DNA of 7,251 nucleotides, taken from positions 1-7,251 of the IMG/VR virus record IMGVR_UViG_2537562172_000004; one strand, given 5' to 3'. The notes beneath the pieces are model-generated. The model was not told where the DNA came from and ran no database searches. It was given only the letters and a program-made list of their open reading frames with translations. The stretch comes from a virus. Lineage: Duplodnaviria > Heunggongvirae > Uroviricota > Caudoviricetes. How positions within the stretch are numbered: the stretch's first letter is position 1; each line of letters starts with the position of its first letter. Shown one piece after another: positions 1 through 7,251 of the stretch. A program made the translations under genes and the position numbers.

Positions 1-129
1 CTATTTATCGGAAGGTTTATCTTGCTGCGGTTTGTTGTTGACCATATCGCACAACATAGAGAGCAGCATTAACCGTACTTTAAAGGGAGAATGACTAAAC
101 ACGCGCATACACCTCTTGAACTCATTCAT
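1..129 (-). CDS. Small hypothetical protein (42 aa), possibly a flanking host gene
   Basis: Window begins with cta (TAG on the minus strand). In-frame ATG at 127-129 is preceded on the minus strand by AGGAGG (plus 134-139) with a 4-nt spacer. Next in-frame stop upstream is at 178-180, so the ORF is at most 42 aa. Translation MNEFKRCMRVFSHSPFKVRLMLLSMLCDMVNNKPQQDKPSDK. Below the ORF-track size cutoff; no family recognised. Confidence 0.3.
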   Translation of the reverse strand: MNEFKRCMRVFSHSPFKVRLMLLSMLCDMVNNKPQQDKPSDK

Positions 130-158
130 AAGACCTCCTGACTTGCTAATCCCGTCGA

Positions 159-178
159 TCCTTGAGGGATGATTGCAT
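159..178. repeat. Left copy of imperfect direct repeat (TCCTTGAGGGATGATTGCAT); candidate att core
   Basis: Hand alignment to 6875-6895 (TCCTTGATAGGATTATTGCAT) gives 18 identical positions, 2 mismatches and one 1-nt gap. It lies about 120 bp beyond the int stop, where P2-family att sites sit. Significance not computed. Confidence 0.35.
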
Positions 179-248
179 TACATACAGATATAGCACAGGC
201 TATATTATAAAGCATCAACTATCTACGAAAAACAATAACTTACAGTGT

Positions 249-261
249 TATCAATAAGTTA
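249..261 (+). promoter_or_regulatory. IHF-like site TATCAATAAGTTA (matches WATCAANNNNTTR)
   Basis: Exact match to the IHF consensus in the AT-rich stretch between the candidate att core and the int 3' end. Single consensus matches can occur by chance. Confidence 0.3.
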
Positions 262-296
262 CGTTAGTTAATATCTGTGAGTATTCGGCAGTATTT

Positions 297-1337
297 CTAA
301 GCTGTCGCGACATTTTTGCGACATTTTAAGGGGTTAAGTCGCACGGCATCTTCAAGGTGGCTTGGGGCGAAATGGGCATAACGCATTGTCATAGTGATGT
401 CAGCGTGGCCGAGAATTTTTTGCAGAACCAGAATGTTTCCGCCGTTCATCATAAAGTGGCTGGCAAATGTATGGCGCAGTACATGGGTAAGCTGGCCGGA
501 GGGGAGTTCAATGCCTGCACGTTCCAGAGCAGAGCGGAAAGCGTTGTAGCAGGGCTTGGGGAACAGAGCGCCTTTTGTTTCAGGTAATTCGGACAGAAGT
601 TCATCATCAAGGGGAATTGTTCTGTTGCGCTTCCCTTTGGTTTTGACGAACGTGACTTTACCCCCGGCGATCTGGGAGCTTTTCAGCGTTGCCGCCTCAT
701 TCCACCTTGCGCCGGTAGCAAGGCAGATTTTGACAACTAATTCTAGGTACTTAACTTTACTTCGTTTGCATTCCAGTAAAAGCCGATCAATTTCTTCGGT
801 AGTGAGGAAAGCCATTTCGGTTTCATCAGTACGATACTGTCTGACGTTTTCTAGTGGGTTGGGTGCTGACCATTCACCAATCCGTTTCAGCTCGTTGAAC
901 ATAGCCAGGAAGTAAGCATGTTCAAGGTTCATAGTTTTCGGGGAAACCTTAGATACTCTGTTGGTACGGGCATAATGCCCATCCAGCCTTTTAGCGCGGT
1001 AGGCTGTGAACAACTGGGCATTAAATTCTGTGGCCAGCGGGAATCCCATGCATTCCGCCGCCCAGGTCATAGCATTTTTACGCTTTTCGCCATTGCTCAA
1101 AGCTACGCCGTGGCGTTCATACCACATTGTTATCAGATCTATTAAAGTTCGCTTGTCCTTCCCTTCACCCAGCCACGGAGCTGCGTCTACTTTCTGAAGC
1201 GTATGGTTTTCGAATGCCAGGGCTTCCCCTTTCGTGGCAAATTTTTTACGTATACGCTTCCCGTTCTTGCCATTACTGCGGTTGACGGTGTAGAAGTCGG
1301 CGATCCATTCGCCTGTAGGAAGTTTACGAACGCTCAT
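297..1337 (-). CDS. int: Tyrosine-type site-specific integrase, P2/186 family
   Basis: 346-aa ORF. Tyrosine-recombinase signature is visible in the translation: TGARWNE, then HVLRHTFASHF, then TMRYAHF with the catalytic Tyr. Overall layout resembles P2-family Int. Its ATG (1335-1337) lies 1 nt after the cI stop (TAA-A-ATG on the minus strand), as in the 186 cI-int operon. Confidence 0.93.
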   Translation of the reverse strand: MSVRKLPTGEWIADFYTVNRSNGKNGKRIRKKFATKGEALAFENHTLQKVDAAPWLGEGKDKRTLIDLITMWYERHGVALSNGEKRKNAMTWAAECMGFPLATEFNAQLFTAYRAKRLDGHYARTNRVSKVSPKTMNLEHAYFLAMFNELKRIGEWSAPNPLENVRQYRTDETEMAFLTTEEIDRLLLECKRSKVKYLELVVKICLATGARWNEAATLKSSQIAGGKVTFVKTKGKRNRTIPLDDELLSELPETKGALFPKPCYNAFRSALERAGIELPSGQLTHVLRHTFASHFMMNGGNILVLQKILGHADITMTMRYAHFAPSHLEDAVRLNPLKCRKNVATA

Positions 1338-1338
1338 T

Positions 1339-1920
1339 TTATTTTATCGTCAGAACAACGCGGCCTATGATTTTTATGTCGTCAATTCCGCAATCAAATG
1401 CCATACCAACACCGCTAACTCTGACTTTTCGTACCGGAATCCGTGTAAGAGTGCGGACGCTTGTTTTTCCTTCAACTTCAACCAACCAATCATCGTCATA
1501 AACTTCAGAATAAGACTGGTCAACAATGTACTGAACAAGGCCATCCAGAACACAAATCGGTTGTTGCGGTAAGGGCTTACCAGGCAGGAAGATGACTTTA
1601 TCAAGCATAAGTGTGCCAGCGTCATAGAGTTGGCCATCAACAATCTTGCTGCGCGGTATTTTGAGTATGTCTAATTCATCATCATTAAATTTACGTCCCT
1701 GTCCTGTCGCCAGCCACTCCAGATTAGCGCCTGTTTCGGCTACACATTTCACGACAATGTCTGCCGGGAAAACTCCACGCTTGTAGCGTGAAGAAAGAGA
1801 ACTGGCTGCCATGTCCAGATGTTCCGCGAGCTGTAACTTCTGCGTAAATCCGTAAGCCTCGATCACCCTGTCAAGAATCGGTGTGCTATCTACGTTTAGG
1901 TCGATTTTAAATGTGCTCAT
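1339..1920 (-). CDS. cI: CI-type immunity repressor (coliphage 186 type)
   Basis: 193-aa ORF from the ATG at 1918-1920; the track ORF extends to a GTG at 1960-1962, which would lie inside the promoter/operator region. Size matches 186 CI (192 aa). It sits immediately upstream of and coupled to int, divergent from apl-cII. N-terminal HTH-like segment FTQKLQLAEHLDMAASSLSSRYKRG. No GDSM Ser-Lys autopeptidase motif seen. Confidence 0.8.
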   Translation of the reverse strand: MSTFKIDLNVDSTPILDRVIEAYGFTQKLQLAEHLDMAASSLSSRYKRGVFPADIVVKCVAETGANLEWLATGQGRKFNDDELDILKIPRSKIVDGQLYDAGTLMLDKVIFLPGKPLPQQPICVLDGLVQYIVDQSYSEVYDDDWLVEVEGKTSVRTLTRIPVRKVRVSGVGMAFDCGIDDIKIIGRVVLTIK

Positions 1921-1934
1921 AGCGAATCCATAAG

Positions 1935-1947
1935 TCTCGATTCGAGA
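1935..1947. promoter_or_regulatory. Perfect 13-bp palindrome TCTCGA-T-TCGAGA; candidate repressor operator
   Basis: Seen directly. A degenerate second copy TCTCGA-A-ACGCGA (10 of 13) lies 29 bp to the right at 1964-1976, inside the spacer of the candidate rightward promoter. Confidence 0.45.
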
Positions 1948-1955
1948 AATTAAAA

Positions 1956-1984
1956 TTGACACTTCTCGAAACGCGAATTAATCT
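1956..1984 (+). promoter_or_regulatory. Candidate rightward early promoter (pR-like)
   Basis: Consensus -35 TTGACA at 1956-1961, then a 17-nt spacer to a weak -10 TAATCT at 1979-1984 (alternatively ATTAAT at 1977-1982). Positioned between the cI start and the apl SD. A possible convergent leftward promoter (-35 TTAACC on the minus strand at plus 2033-2038, -10 TATATA near plus 2009-2014) is much less certain. Confidence 0.4.
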
Positions 1985-2055
1985 GGCTCCATATTTCGAA
2001 TGTTGCCTTATATAACCCTGTATTGCCGTACAGGTTAACTTGTGGAGTTTGCCTC

Positions 2056-2277
2056 ATGCGTCCGAACATTACAATCATCATCCCTGAGCCATACCTGCCT
2101 TTAGACGAGTATTGCCGCCGTACTGGTACCAACAAAGAAACCGCCAGGAACCTGATCGAATACGGGAAATTACCTATTAAGCCGAAGGGTAAGCAGAAGA
2201 AAGGCTTGGTCGAAGTCAACATGGCCGCGCTCACTATTCAGGCTTTAAGCGAATGTGACATTTCGCTTAACGCGTAA
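2056..2277 (+). CDS. apl: Apl/Cox-like excisionase and switch regulator
   Basis: 73-aa ORF from ATG 2056, preceded by GGAG at 2044-2047 (8-nt spacer). The track ORF starts at an upstream TTG (2023) with no SD. First gene rightward of the switch. Segment PYLPLDEYCRRTGTNKETARNLIEYGKLP resembles the DNA-binding region of P2 Cox as I recall it. Confidence 0.7.
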   Translation: MRPNITIIIPEPYLPLDEYCRRTGTNKETARNLIEYGKLPIKPKGKQKKGLVEVNMAALTIQALSECDISLNA

Positions 2278-2307
2278 TCCATCCTACGGATTCGGGAGAG
2301 GCAAACA

Positions 2308-2811
2308 ATGTTTGATTACCAGACCTCTAAACATGCGCACTTTGATGCGGCTTGCCGAGCATTTGCAATTGAGCACAATCTTGAAGATGTGGCCGCTGCC
2401 GTTGGTATGAGGCCGCAGATCCTGCGCAACAAACTGAACCCAGCACAACCGCACCGCCTGACCTGTGATGAGCTTTTGGCTATCACGGATTACACCGAAG
2501 ATGCGCGTTTGCTTGATGGGATGTTAGGTCAGATTAACTGCCTTCCATCCGTGCCGGTGAACAATGCCACAGAAGGCAACATGCAGTTGTGCGCACTGAG
2601 TGCCACAGCCAGTGTGGGCGCGATTGCTGGGGAAGCCGTATCAACTGGCTATATGACTGCCGCCCGCCGTACTCAAATTCTGGATCGTGCCCGCGATGCA
2701 ATCCGTAGCTTATCCGTGCTGGCTTATACCGTTGAAAGCCGTATTCACTCTGCGCCTGTTCTGGCTGCGGCGGTGGAGCTGGTCACAACCAACGCCACCG
2801 GCCTGATGTGA
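2308..2811 (+). CDS. cII: CII-like HTH transcriptional activator (186 type)
   Basis: 167-aa ORF; SD GGGAGAGG 6 nt upstream of the ATG. HTH-like segment LEDVAAAVGMRPQILRNKL. Size and position (second gene of the rightward operon) match 186 CII (169 aa). Confidence 0.75.
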   Translation: MFDYQTSKHAHFDAACRAFAIEHNLEDVAAAVGMRPQILRNKLNPAQPHRLTCDELLAITDYTEDARLLDGMLGQINCLPSVPVNNATEGNMQLCALSATASVGAIAGEAVSTGYMTAARRTQILDRARDAIRSLSVLAYTVESRIHSAPVLAAAVELVTTNATGLM

Positions 2812-2820
2812 GGGAACACC

Positions 2821-2994
2821 ATGAAAGCGTTTGTCACTTACCTGAAAAAAGAATCACCAGCCATGCAGTTGCCGAGTGGTTCAACGGGCTGGATAGAACT
2901 GCCAAACGGTCAGCGCTGGAACCCTGGCCACATGTACAAATTCAATGGCCAGCAGCCGCGCCGCCCGTGGTGGCGTCGTCTGATGGGACTATAG
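2821..2994 (+). CDS. Small hypothetical early protein (57 aa)
   Basis: Not in the ORF track. ATG 2821 is preceded by GAGGGAA (2810-2816); stop TAG at 2992-2994. Translation MKAFVTYLKKESPAMQLPSGSTGWIELPNGQRWNPGHMYKFNGQQPRRPWWRRLMGL. Occupies the slot that fil/dhr-type small early genes take in 186; homology not established. Confidence 0.4.
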   Translation: MKAFVTYLKKESPAMQLPSGSTGWIELPNGQRWNPGHMYKFNGQQPRRPWWRRLMGL

Positions 2995-3002
2995 GGGGCG
3001 TT

Positions 3003-3269
3003 ATGGCGATTAGCCAGGAACAGCAAAAGCGCGGGCTGGAGCATTTAAAACAGATCCGCCGCAAATACTTCAACGAAAGCAGCGAGGCCGCTGAATGGTG
3101 GGACAACTTAACACCGGAGTGGCGCGGCGTGGTGCTTCATGCTGCTGCGGTTACTTCTGGTTCCGGGGCATTTAAAGCCCACTTAAGCAAATGTTGCTGG
3201 CGTGAGATTTATGAACGCCTGGGCTATCGGGACATGATTCAACTGCGCCAACGCAGAAACGACCGTTAA
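3003..3269 (+). CDS. Small hypothetical early protein (88 aa)
   Basis: ATG 3003 is preceded by AGGGGG (2993-2998). It is the C-terminal part of track ORF 2808-3269, whose GTG start overlaps the cII stop; I prefer the internal ATG with its SD. Translation begins MAISQEQQKRGLEHLKQIRRKYFNESSEAAEWWDNL. Confidence 0.5.
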   Translation: MAISQEQQKRGLEHLKQIRRKYFNESSEAAEWWDNLTPEWRGVVLHAAAVTSGSGAFKAHLSKCCWREIYERLGYRDMIQLRQRRNDR

Positions 3270-3305
3270 GAATATTGCATTTAACTACATAGTGAGACTC
3301 GCATA

Positions 3306-3893
3306 ATGACTTTTAAAATGAGTGAAACCGATCAAACAGTTACTGTTTATAACCTGCGTTCCGACACGAATGAATTTATTGGTTCAGGTGATGCTTTTAT
3401 TCCTGCGCATACTGGACTGCCAGCCAACTGCACAACAATAAAACCACCGGTAATCAAAGTGGGGTTTGTGGCAATTTTTGATTCAGAGAAGCAAAGATGG
3501 ATTTCCCGTGAGGATCATCGTGGTGAGGTGGTGTTTGATACAGAAAACGGTAATGAACTGGTGATCACCGAGCCAGGTGTTTACCCGGAAGGGACAACCA
3601 CGTTAGCACCGGCTAATGCCTGGCAAAAATGGAATGGTAAGGCGTGGGTGGATGATGCGGAGGCCATGCGAATTGTATTAGTCAGCGAGGCAGACGCCGA
3701 AAAGAAAAGCCTGCTTAAACAGGCCAATGACGCCATTGCCACATTGCAGGATGCCGTTGATTTAGACATGGCAACCGAAGAAGAAGCACTGCTGCTTACC
3801 GCATGGAAAAAATACCGCGTTTTACTGAATCGTATTCAACCGGAAGATGCGCCGGAAATTGTGTGGCCGGAGGTGCCTGGAAATGTGGCGTGA
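3306..3893 (+). CDS. tfa: Tail fibre assembly protein (lambda Tfa / P2 gpG family)
   Basis: 195-aa ORF. The N-terminus MTFKMSETDQTVTVYNLRSDTNEFIGSGDAFIPAHTGLPAN and the C-terminal block LLTAWKKYRVLLNRIQPEDAPEIVWPEVP match the conserved ends of lambda Tfa-family proteins as I recall them. No tail fibre gene precedes it. Confidence 0.85.
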   Translation: MTFKMSETDQTVTVYNLRSDTNEFIGSGDAFIPAHTGLPANCTTIKPPVIKVGFVAIFDSEKQRWISREDHRGEVVFDTENGNELVITEPGVYPEGTTTLAPANAWQKWNGKAWVDDAEAMRIVLVSEADAEKKSLLKQANDAIATLQDAVDLDMATEEEALLLTAWKKYRVLLNRIQPEDAPEIVWPEVPGNVA

Positions 3894-4608
3894 AGCACGT
3901 CTGGCCTTTACGGATTCTGTTGCTGCTCTGAACTGTTCGATCGTCCCTGCGCATCCGTGGATTTATGGGCTGGGACAGCAGACAGCGAATGGGGCATATC
4001 TCAGTCCGGTTAATGCCGTTCGCTATCTTGCTGAACGCCTGGCCGGAACTGGAGGGAATGCGGACGTGGTGATTATGATGGTCACCGGACAGACGCAGGA
4101 AAACTTTATGGTCAGCCTGAATAACCTGGTCGGGATATTCCCCGCCCCGGCATTCACGCAGGTCAAACGGCTGGCGCAATCTGCCGCAGCTCTGGCTATT
4201 GAAAAGATGCAGATCCCTGCGAAATCCGGCGCTGCGTTACCTGCGTCCATTCCGCTGTCTGTACCAACCAGCAGGGTTGCTTTATCTGCTGCGGCAATCA
4301 GCCAGGCACAAAAGGCGGCGGGTGCCGGGTTTGATATCGAAGGGCTGAAAAAACAGCTGGGCGAGTTCACGCAGCTGCGTGACCAGCTTATCAGTGACGT
4401 GGTCAGCGGCCTGAATGATTTACAGGGAAAAAGTGCCAGAGCGTGGGTTTTTACTGCCAGCGGAGACACCGGCACCACGTTACTGGAACTGATGAAGGAC
4501 ATTCCGCAGCAGTCTGCCGTTTACACCGCAGCCATGATGCTGGTTGGTGATAATCTTGATGGAATAAAGGGAATGATTCATGACTTCGATCCCGACACTG
4601 GCGCTTAA
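3883..4608 (+). CDS. Uncharacterised protein A (241 aa), first of a coupled three-gene module
   Basis: ATG 3883 with GGAGGTG at 3869-3875; overlaps the tfa stop by 11 nt. The track start at ATG 3847 has its only purine-rich stretch (GGAAG, 3842-3846) directly abutting the ATG. Globular-looking N-terminal half, Ala-rich C-terminal half (SAAALAIEKMQ, ALSAAAISQAQKAAGAG). No Walker or nuclease motif seen. Confidence 0.7.
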   Translation: MWREARLAFTDSVAALNCSIVPAHPWIYGLGQQTANGAYLSPVNAVRYLAERLAGTGGNADVVIMMVTGQTQENFMVSLNNLVGIFPAPAFTQVKRLAQSAAALAIEKMQIPAKSGAALPASIPLSVPTSRVALSAAAISQAQKAAGAGFDIEGLKKQLGEFTQLRDQLISDVVSGLNDLQGKSARAWVFTASGDTGTTLLELMKDIPQQSAVYTAAMMLVGDNLDGIKGMIHDFDPDTGA

Positions 4609-5125
4609 TGGCGAGGCCATCCAGCTGAAAAACATGCGGGTGACCGTTTCACAGCAGTTTCAGGATAAAGATCAGTCCGGCCAGACCAGCGCCACAACAA
4701 AATCAGAGCAGGGAGCAAAGGGAAAGGAACTGCGGATCAGCGGTGAAATACCTTTTAAACAGCCTGAAATACTGAAGCGTATTTTTGAGCTGGCCAGTGC
4801 TACCGATGCCAGTGGTAATCGTCAGAAGTACCGCGTGGCGCATGAAGTTGCCCGTGCAGTTAATTTTCGTGAAGCAACGTTCAGCGGAATGCTGGATGCG
4901 CCCCAGCAGGACGGGAAAATGTCCTGGCTGGTGACATTCACACTGGCGGAACATATCAGCGTGCAGGAAAAGCGAGAGGCCAGGGCAACAGGTAAGACGA
5001 CCGCAAAAAAACAGACTGCCGGTAGTGCGGGACAGTCCGGTGGCCAGTCTGCCGGAGAGGATGAAGAAAAACTGACGTGGTTTGAACGCAAGGTGCTGAA
5101 GCCCGTCAATGATGCTTTGGGTTAA
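4580..5125 (+). CDS. Uncharacterised protein B (181 aa), low-complexity Gln/Ser/Gly/Thr/Lys-rich segments
   Basis: ATG 4580 with GGGA at 4569-4572; overlaps the end of A by 29 nt in another frame. Two low-complexity stretches (QDKDQSGQTSATTKSEQGAKGKE; ARATGKTTAKKQTAGSAGQSGGQSAGEDEEK) flank a more ordinary core. Confidence 0.7.
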   Translation: MTSIPTLALNGEAIQLKNMRVTVSQQFQDKDQSGQTSATTKSEQGAKGKELRISGEIPFKQPEILKRIFELASATDASGNRQKYRVAHEVARAVNFREATFSGMLDAPQQDGKMSWLVTFTLAEHISVQEKREARATGKTTAKKQTAGSAGQSGGQSAGEDEEKLTWFERKVLKPVNDALG

Positions 5126-5127
5126 TA

Positions 5128-6828
5128 ATGAAACCAGTAAAACGTCTTTACCTTTCAACGGATGAAATTCACCTGGTGGATGCCAGCCTGGTACTGGAGC
5201 TGAACAGCTGCGGTCGGGGCTTCATCACCGCAGAGACAACAACCGATTACACCGGAAAACTGGTGCGGCTGGATGTGGGGTATACCGATCTGCTTTTGCG
5301 CTGGTTTACGGGGTACGTGGAGCGATCGCAGCCCGCAGAAAACGGTTTTCAGCGTCTGTTCATTCGTGAACTGGTAGGTGTGTTTGAAAGGATGTGGCCA
5401 TGTTCGTTTCAGCACCCGACTTTGCGTGAAATTGCGGGCTGGCTGGAAGAAAACAGCGGGATCACGGTCAGTGTGCCTGATGCACAGTACAGCGATACCC
5501 CTATCCCACATTTTACTCATAACGGTACCGGCTATCAGTTGCTGAACAATCTGGGCAGGGCGTTCAGTATCCAGGATTACATCTGGTACCAGTTGCCTGA
5601 TGGTTCGCTTTACGTCGGCGGTGCAGAAAAGTCATTGTTTGCCGGTCGTCCCGTAGAAATCCCGTCAGAGTTCAGCCAGGGGGCTGCTGGTGGTAACTCT
5701 GTGACATTACCAGTGATCCAGACTATGCGGCCAGGGGTGGAGATGAACGGTGAACGCGTGACTAAAGTTCACCTGACTAATGACACGATGGCGATCACAT
5801 GGACGCCGAGAAACCGCGCAACGGGTAAACCTTTGCAGAAAACACCGGCGCAACGGCAGATTGAAAGCCATTACCCGGAACTGGCATCCGGGCTTCATTT
5901 GCCAAAGATGGCCAGAGTCGTGGCGCATTCAGAGCCGGTAAAAAGCGGTAACTTTGCCGATCCCTTCCGTCCACGTTACGCCGTGGACGTGCAGCTGCTT
6001 GACGCAGACGGAAATCCGGACAATCAGACACCTGTTTATTCAGCGGTGCCGCTGCCGGTACCAATGGCCGGGAATGATTCGGGTATGTTTCAGTTTCCGC
6101 CAGAAGGGACGCTGGTTGAGGTTGCATTCACGGGAGGCAGACCGGATAAACCCTTTATCAGGCAGACCCTGCCGGATGGTACCAGCCTGCCGGACGTTAA
6201 ACCCGGTGAGCAATTGCAGCAGCAGCGGGAAGAAGTATGCCAGAGAGTGACGCAGGCTGGAGACTGGGTAAGGCAGACCGATCAGACCATCAGAGAAACA
6301 TCAATGGTGCGAACCGTAAAAGCCGATACAGAACAGCGCGAGCTGGTCAGCCGTGAAACCACGGTGAAAGCCACGGATAAAACCACGGTACTGGGAACCG
6401 CCACACTGCTGGCCGGAGCCATCCAGCATGTAAGCGCCGGTGATTATAGCCAGGCGGTGAAAGGTAACAGGCTGGCCAGCATTGAAGGGAATGACGAAAC
6501 TGAGATAACCGGGAAACAGTCCACTAAGGTGGCGGGAGCCGTAGATGTGGATGTGGGGGGAACCCTGACTGAAAAGATTGCTGCATTACGCAAATCGGTG
6601 GCATCGGGCGGTCAGCAGATTATGGGGCCAACCGTCCATATCGGCAGTGAAAGTGTAAACACGCTGACCATGATGTTGGACACCATTGATTTACTGGCAG
6701 AGCTGGCGCAGCAATGTGCGAGTCATTCGCACCCCAGTGTTGGTACGCCAACCAATGCCGGAGCGTTTACCCGGACGGCGACAAAGGCCGGACAGACCCG
6801 GAGCAAGTACCAGAACATCATTGCCTGA
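5128..6828 (+). CDS. Uncharacterised protein C (566 aa), bipartite with Thr/Gly/Ala/Val-rich C-terminal part
   Basis: ATG 5128 lies 2 nt after the B stop. Long uninterrupted ORF. Ordinary-looking N-terminal ~330 aa; C-terminal part rich in T/G/A/V with an HSH tripeptide near the end (QQCASHSHPSVGTPTNAGAF). No P-loop seen. Confidence 0.8.
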   Translation: MKPVKRLYLSTDEIHLVDASLVLELNSCGRGFITAETTTDYTGKLVRLDVGYTDLLLRWFTGYVERSQPAENGFQRLFIRELVGVFERMWPCSFQHPTLREIAGWLEENSGITVSVPDAQYSDTPIPHFTHNGTGYQLLNNLGRAFSIQDYIWYQLPDGSLYVGGAEKSLFAGRPVEIPSEFSQGAAGGNSVTLPVIQTMRPGVEMNGERVTKVHLTNDTMAITWTPRNRATGKPLQKTPAQRQIESHYPELASGLHLPKMARVVAHSEPVKSGNFADPFRPRYAVDVQLLDADGNPDNQTPVYSAVPLPVPMAGNDSGMFQFPPEGTLVEVAFTGGRPDKPFIRQTLPDGTSLPDVKPGEQLQQQREEVCQRVTQAGDWVRQTDQTIRETSMVRTVKADTEQRELVSRETTVKATDKTTVLGTATLLAGAIQHVSAGDYSQAVKGNRLASIEGNDETEITGKQSTKVAGAVDVDVGGTLTEKIAALRKSVASGGQQIMGPTVHIGSESVNTLTMMLDTIDLLAELAQQCASHSHPSVGTPTNAGAFTRTATKAGQTRSKYQNIIA

Positions 6829-6840
6829 CCATTCCAGACA

Positions 6841-6868
6841 GCCCGCAAAACGCGGGTTTTGTCGTTTT
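6841..6868 (+). terminator. Rho-independent terminator of the rightward operon
   Basis: Stem CCCGC (6842-6846) pairs with GCGGG (6852-6856) around loop AAAAC, followed by TTTTGTCGTTTT. Located 13 nt after the stop of protein C. Confidence 0.75.
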
Positions 6869-6874
6869 CTCAGT

Positions 6875-6895
6875 TCCTTGATAGGATTATTGCAT
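6875..6895. repeat. Right copy of imperfect direct repeat (TCCTTGATAGGATTATTGCAT); candidate att core
   Basis: Partner of 159-178 (18 identities, 2 mismatches, 1 gap by hand). Lies between the operon terminator and the AT-richer downstream gene. Confidence 0.35.
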
Positions 6896-6918
6896 ACTCA
6901 AATGATAGGAATAGGGAT

Positions 6919-7251
6919 ATGAAAAATTTCATTATATTAGCTGTAGGGGCAGCAGTTTCATTTAATGTGTTTGCGGCTGAGGTTGTTTATGTGCCAACAG
7001 ATACGAAGGCTAGTTACACGATTTTAGATAAGACTCGCGACGGCAGCATGGCTACTATAACAACTGAAAGAAAGGGGCCGTCTGGAACATCATATTCAAA
7101 GCGGCTGTACGACTGTACTGCCGGGACAGTTAAATATCTTGGAGACGGTGAGACCATCGAGCAGATGAATAACTCAGCACCAGATCCAAATATGGCCCCT
7201 ATAGTTGACCGCTCAATTGCATACTACATTGGACAAAAAGCCTGCCAGTAA
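6919..7251 (+). CDS. Small secreted (signal-peptide) protein, 110 aa, function unknown
   Basis: ATG 6919 with AGGA at 6907-6910. N-terminus MKNFIILAVGAAVSFNVFA-AEVV has a Lys at position 2, a hydrophobic core and a likely VFA-A cleavage site. Mature part has two Cys (LYDCTAG, QKACQ). Codons look more A/T-rich than the upstream operon by eye. The track's longer form from 6859 would start inside the terminator T-tract. Window ends exactly at its stop. Confidence 0.65.
   Translation: MKNFIILAVGAAVSFNVFAAEVVYVPTDTKASYTILDKTRDGSMATITTERKGPSGTSYSKRLYDCTAGTVKYLGDGETIEQMNNSAPDPNMAPIVDRSIAYYIGQKACQ

Follow-up and report, generated by a model that had tools for sequence, protein, structure and literature searches.

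The stretch of DNA analysed here (the window, 7,251 nucleotides long) covers the leftmost 7 kb of a defective prophage in E. coli. We hold with high confidence that it is an ESSI-2-like prophage residing between mntS and mntR from which one illegitimate deletion removed 20,448 bp. By blastn against the intact parent (locus L004), window 1-3250 corresponds to L004 602-3851 with 100% identity and window 3249-7251 corresponds to L004 24298-28300 with one mismatch, at 6239; missing between the two arms is exactly 20,448 bp, as a single contiguous segment. A preliminary description of the window had noticed that the early region is joined straight to tfa, proposed the junction as a candidate recombination or deletion scar, and suggested alignment with intact relatives to locate the breakpoint. 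The direct joining is real, as ORF4', the fourth early ORF in truncated form, has its stop at 3269 and tfa has its start at 3306. Moreover, the alignment confirmed the deletion scar and placed the breakpoint at 3249/3250.

The window is 100% identical to positions 4999-12249 of locus L007, which is taken from contig JABAWP010000001.1 of the E. coli draft assembly GCA_012930545.1. The insertion site is empty in K-12 MG1655, where mntS adjoins mntR. In the window, mntS is the chromosomal gene bordering attL (1-129, minus strand), recognized by the annotation of homologous loci as mntS, by PF26599 (MntS) in L007 and by 99.5% identity to K-12. The attL core GCTATATTATAAAGC (199-213) is a 15-bp piece of the empty K-12 site that is present at both ends of the insertion, and some 8,458 bp further right, beyond the window, is the attR core GCTATATTATATAGC. 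Thus, the 15-bp core is duplicated relative to the empty site, with attL and attR identical at 14 of the 15 positions. This duplication, together with a gene content that equals the parent minus one segment and with genes cut at the junction, identifies the element as a defective prophage.

The left arm carries an intact tyrosine integrase gene (297-1337, minus strand; Pfam Int_N 8e-31, Phage_integrase 6.6e-25), whose DNA is 100% identical to that of the intact parent, and an intact gene for a 186-type CI repressor (1339-1920, minus strand; Pfam Phage_CI_repr 6.4e-23, Phage_CI_C 4.1e-31) of 193 aa according to the gene calls of L007 and RefSeq. On the plus strand are genes for a Cox/Apl-like excisionase-repressor as the first gene of the early lytic operon (2056-2277; phrog_575 'Cox-like excisionase and repressor', 1.5e-27), a CII-like regulator of the CP76 family (2308-2811; Pfam Phage_CP76 1.8e-46, phrog_101 2e-43) and a Fil-like small protein (2821-2994; Pfam Phage_186_Fil 3e-10). 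The immunity and early region is therefore of the 186 type, with CI (PF07022 and PF16452) divergent from the Cox/Apl-like gene and with CII (PF06892) and Fil (PF10893) present. The helix-turn-helix and C-terminal domains of CI and the Cox/Apl-like, CII and Fil proteins are all shared with coliphage 186 and P2, and the early genes of the window stand in the order of 186, facing int-cI.

The right arm, on the plus strand throughout, starts with a stub of the tail-fibre gene, which is followed by an intact tfa for the tail-fibre assembly protein (3306-3893; Pfam Caudo_TAP 1.8e-35, phrog_105 5.7e-83) and a gene for a conserved phage protein of 241 aa without assigned function (3883-4608; phrog_1677 2.2e-75), which is also found in the intact prophages and in Escherichia phage ESSI2_ev015. 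Next are genes for an HP1 ORF34-type baseplate complex protein (4580-5125; Pfam HP1_ORF34 4.1e-54) and for a baseplate or spike protein of 566 aa (5128-6828; phrog_2258 'baseplate protein', 1.2e-278); the latter has weak matches to Gp5_C and Phage_base_V, that to Phage_base_V being under the Pfam cut-off. The last gene (6919-7251; phrog_13843 1.9e-47) is a cargo gene annotated as hypothetical, for a 110-aa protein whose N-terminal segment is hydrophobic and signal-like. It is located inside the island but past the end of homology to the ESSI2_ev phages, at 6860. Late genes of P2 and 186 are ordered H-G-FI-FII. The preliminary description had assumed an order of the P2/186 kind, whereas the parent has a late region of the ESSI-2/HP1 type: it encodes an HP1_ORF34 baseplate protein, and tfa and three baseplate genes, including the baseplate/spike gene, occupy the right end of the prophage.

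Two side observations concern this arm. The only difference from the parent in the 7,251 nt, at 6239, is G in the window and C in the parent, and changes codon 371 of the spike protein from Ser in the parent to Cys in the window. In addition, the cargo between the spike gene and attR (window 6860-7251, L007 11917-13584) is present in none of the ESSI2_ev phages. In L007, this interval contains only the 110-aa gene and a second cargo gene on the opposite strand, for a hexapeptide-repeat (serine) acetyltransferase.

The intact parent is an ESSI-2-like prophage of 28.9 kb that is found between mntS and mntR in seven complete E. coli genomes: CM2010-0578/1 (NZ_CP087564.1), 1919D3, XYEH3934, Z142-3, CUWW10, 23CRST047 and 23CRST049. 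In these seven genomes, both arms of the window are 100% identical apart from one SNP, and the arms are spaced 20,449 bp apart. The gene order of the parent matches that of ESSI2_ev015 (Peduoviridae, Quadragintavirus), and the phages ESSI2_ev015, ev129, ev239 and ev040 show 95% identity over window 3249-6860 (95.4% for ESSI2_ev015), with the tail-fibre gene directly upstream of tfa. Thus, nucleotide identity and synteny place the element among the ESSI-2-like phages (Peduoviridae, Quadragintavirus). The intact relatives are viable phages, because infant faecal viromes have yielded the ESSI2_ev phages as infectious temperate coliphages (PMC6969025).

The window shares with the ESSI2_ev phages and the intact mntS-mntR prophages the early genes, the block from tfa to the spike gene and the att site. 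In contrast to them, it has no central 20,448 bp, its ORF4 is truncated, and its tail-fibre gene is reduced to a stub of 18 codons. The deleted interval in L004 contains 27 annotated genes, wholly or partly, from the 3' end of ORF4 to the tail fibre. Lost at its left are the rest of ORF4, a 133-aa ORF, DUF2732, DNA adenine methylase, the replication endonuclease and ogr/delta, followed by portal, large terminase, scaffold, major capsid, small terminase, head completion and tail completion genes. The losses go on with sheath, tube, holin, endolysin, spanin, chaperones and tape measure, and end with DUF2590, baseplate J, a tail protein and the 526-codon tail-fibre gene. The earlier claims that replication and morphogenesis genes are absent, and that the element can neither replicate nor build particles on its own, agree with this list, both in the methylase, replication endonuclease, ogr/delta, portal, terminase and capsid genes and in the further losses of sheath, tube, lysis, tape measure, baseplate J and tail-fibre genes. 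The same description had left room for such genes elsewhere in the element, but the source contig contains none between the att repeats, from attL to attR; the source strain may carry a second, intact copy elsewhere in its genome. With 20,448 bp missing, the element has no complete set of the replication, head, tail and lysis modules of a functional phage; it is a defective derivative of an ESSI-2-like prophage and not a phage.

As a side observation, the prophage family occurs rarely in E. coli: out of 5,426 complete genomes, 23 were matched by the early-region probe and 36 by the tfa probe. Several genomes, e.g. 160-11H1, PSS-07, mip270 and JNE25-001, have the early region with no megablast-level match to tfa, and these could possess different tail-fibre modules or have undergone additional deletions.

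The junction (3249..3250) was read base by base from the blastn arms against L004 and from an alignment of both parental flanks. The dinucleotide CA at 3249-3250 is the sole overlap of the two arms, and the parental flanks are otherwise unrelated. On the left, ORF4 is cut after codon 83 of 142; comparison of the translation of ORF4' (3003-3269, plus strand), an 88-aa fusion, with the parental 142-aa protein (phrog_33841) showed that residues 1-83 are identical to the parent and are followed by five foreign codons, RRNDR, and a stop at 3267-3269, all read from out-of-frame tail-fibre DNA. On the right, the breakpoint is located 57 nt upstream of the end of the tail-fibre gene (526 codons in the parent) and leaves a stub (3250-3306, plus strand) of the last 18 codons, NAETTVKNIAFNYIVRLA, and the stop, which is identical to the 3' end of the parental CDS (L004 22778-24355). 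The TAA of this stub (3304-3306) overlaps the ATG of tfa (3306-3308) by one base, as in the parent.

This reading changes the view of the segment 3270-3305, which the preliminary description had regarded as an AT-rich spacer of 36 bp that contains the scar. There are indeed 36 nt between the stop of ORF4' at 3269 and the start of tfa at 3306, and the GC content is locally about 40%. However, these are the final 36 nt of the tail-fibre gene (ending in NIAFNYIVRLA and the stop codon), not intergenic DNA, and the breakpoint is situated about 20 bp to the left, within the 3' end of ORF4. The local fall of GC to 40% belongs to the module of the tail-fibre 3' end and the 5' part of tfa, which is unchanged from the parent. 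In a promoter scan of 1900-4000, one promoter-like site was obtained, at 3292-3319, against 1.8 expected, and a consensus scan of the same range, which has low power, gave no convincing plus-strand terminator between ORF4' and tfa.

With regard to the origin of the deletion, an ESSI-2-like temperate myophage, composed of a 186-type immunity and early region and an HP1/ESSI-2-type late region, would have integrated at the 15-bp core between mntS and mntR. A single event of illegitimate recombination would then have removed the 20,448 bp from ORF4 to the 3' end of the tail-fibre gene, between sites that share CA. Because the 2-bp CA overlap is accompanied by no flanking repeat, the event is better explained by illegitimate recombination than by invertase, integrase or homologous exchange. 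As to the molecular route, replication slippage is one candidate and an illegitimate event of the end-joining or gyrase type another; an overlap of 2 bp is close to chance expectation, and the route is not derivable from the sequence. Two other origins were rejected: homologous recombination between repeats, as the parental flanks are unrelated apart from CA, and mosaic exchange between two phages, as a single parent accounts for both arms with 100% identity.

Site-specific recombination at the tail-fibre/tfa module, by an invertase of the Gin/Cin/Pin/Hin type or through secondary integrase sites, was considered too; it would make tfa a hotspot of recombination, as tfa genes are known to be according to the preliminary description. 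The module of the tail-fibre 3' end and the 5' part of tfa is in fact mosaic: Erwinia phage RF1 matches window 3257-3433 with 93% identity, and prophages that show about 92% identity in the flanks show only about 80% in tfa. The independent deletion in strain 573 (see below) also ends nearby, 72 nt away and within the final 129 nt of the tail-fibre gene. On the other hand, no invertase gene is annotated in either the parent or the remnant, and a search of their annotated genes for a serine invertase by the tail fibre and tfa gave none, with no Pfam match either. The crossover core AAACCNNGGTTT occurs at chance level (6 matches with at most 2 mismatches against 3.7 expected, in an approximate test), with none at the junction; inverted crossover sites with alternative tail-fibre C-termini were not found, and tfa is single-copy. 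A repeat search of 3000-3600 gave short chance pairs only, with no direct or inverted repeats related to the junction. Moreover, CA alone is common to both parental breakpoints, and the third remnant, in Combat13F7, breaks in the spike and tape-measure genes. Thus, the earlier proposal of recombination specific to tfa was not borne out, with neither an invertase gene nor a crossover site nor a repeat at the junction, and we regard a site-specific origin as very improbable; of the invertase crossover sequences or microhomology that it suggested looking for at 3270-3305, only microhomology was found, as the 2 bp of CA at 3249-3250. The mosaic module has been exchanged horizontally and is unrelated to the illegitimate deletion. 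As a further observation on this module, window 3257-3433 has about 40% GC against 50-58% around it, and its similarity to phage RF1 is with the TfaE region.

An artificial junction, with two contig ends of a draft genome wrongly joined, would give a similar picture. The source is a draft assembly, and the junction is absent from the complete genomes of the E. coli collection: among 5,426 of them, the junction probe found no record that spans both sides, and the exact 40-nt junction had 0 matches in the GTDB species representatives. Nevertheless, the index of a public assembly collection lists the exact 88-aa fusion protein in 72 blocks, and the contigs read from these assemblies, 24 of 24, contain the fusion ORF with the same gene neighbourhood. 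No repeat able to collapse in assembly is present at the junction, which is internal to a contig of 158 kb. A one-off misassembly is ruled out by the recurrence of the fusion ORF with its neighbours in 24 of 24 contigs and 72 index blocks; the junction is not a misassembly, because the same fusion ORF is found in at least 24 contigs from public assemblies, and we give wrong joining hardly any credence. The recurrence, known from the assembly index alone, suggests a lineage with the scar of the deletion fixed in it.

Two other remnants at the same att site provide a comparison. In E. coli strain 573 (NZ_CP102853.1; L001 9475-9550), 18,040 bp have been lost relative to EC101 with the microhomology GGTA, and a truncated replication endonuclease gene runs into the final 129 nt of the tail-fibre gene. 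In E. coli Combat13F7 (NZ_CP019245.1; L002 6125-6235), ORF4 is followed by a filler of 37 nt from the tape-measure gene and then by the spike gene, and this complex scar is annotated in RefSeq as one 579-aa CDS, a fusion of ORF4 and the spike. Both resemble the window in their site, in the retention of int-cI-cox-cII-fil and in deletion junctions with short microhomology, but their breakpoints differ from those of the window; they are related prophages that have decayed independently. The distance of only 72 nt between the right breakpoints of strain 573 and the window is a mild coincidence, noticed post hoc among three cases only.

The K-12 cryptic prophages e14, Rac and CP4-57 are likewise flanked by att sites, keep the integrase/repressor end and a partial tail-fibre/tfa end, and are incompetent for particle formation. 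Compared with them, the scar of the window is very young, because the window has one mismatch relative to the intact parent, and it traces to a single event that can be reconstructed to the base.

Apart from the substitution at 6239, the retained genes are all intact and identical to the parent. The remnant probably makes CI, which would give immunity to related phages, and it may be excised by Int and the Cox/Apl-like protein. Judging from the genes lost, it should be unable to replicate, to activate late genes, to package, to build tails or to lyse the cell. Moreover, tfa and the three baseplate genes would now be downstream of the early lytic promoter, separated from their late promoter dependent on Ogr/Delta.

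Another reading takes the element not for debris but for a selected, domesticated or satellite-like module, which would retain its immunity and excision genes together with tfa and the baseplate genes in order to exploit or block related helper phages. The intactness of the retained genes, the fixation of the scar in many assemblies and the retention of int-cI-cox-cII-fil in all three independent remnants at the site are in line with it. However, the ends of a prophage survive any internal deletion, a truncated gene is left on either side of the junction, and the right-hand gene sets differ among the three remnants. One mismatch in 7,251 nt also points to a recent event, with too little time for selection to show. 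Pfam and PHROG searches revealed none of the genes for replication, packaging redirection or capsid remodelling of known satellites; the element has no replication gene, unlike P4-like or PICI-like satellites, and its genes are a subset of those of one intact prophage. A satellite was accordingly rejected on the stubs at both sides of the junction and the gene content of a single phage, and domestication in the wider sense seems very improbable to us. Equally improbable is a narrower form, in which the remnant is kept by selection as a small island of immunity and excision with tfa and the three baseplate genes under the early lytic promoter. If it were so, early expression of tfa and the baseplate genes could interfere with superinfecting ESSI-2-like phages or alter their host range, and the clustering of two independent right breakpoints within 72 nt at the 3' end of the tail fibre would reflect either true fragility of this site or selection for an intact tfa. 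We conclude that the junction is the product of ordinary, recent prophage decay.

With regard to annotation, the locus should be described as a remnant of a defective ESSI-2-like (Quadragintavirus) prophage at mntS-mntR, with the label of pseudogene fragment for both ORF4' and the tail-fibre stub. Beyond annotation, the significance of the junction is small. It is an example of prophage decay resolved to the base, for which an identical intact parent and two independent sister remnants at the same site are available, and it could contribute a small data point to work on how prophages become domesticated.

Finally, some features of the insertion site concern the host. The att core, GCTATATTATA(A/T)AGC, sits in the promoter region of mntS/rybA (window 189-213, L006 3058-3082), 3 bp upstream of the annotated 5' end of rybA in K-12. 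The palindrome ATATAGCACAGGCTATAT at 189-206, which resembles an MntR operator and which we presume to be a putative one, is preserved at the insertion. In lysogens, all DNA upstream of about 214, the expected -35 position, is that of the phage, and the element parts mntS from mntR. Integration could alter the regulation of mntS.
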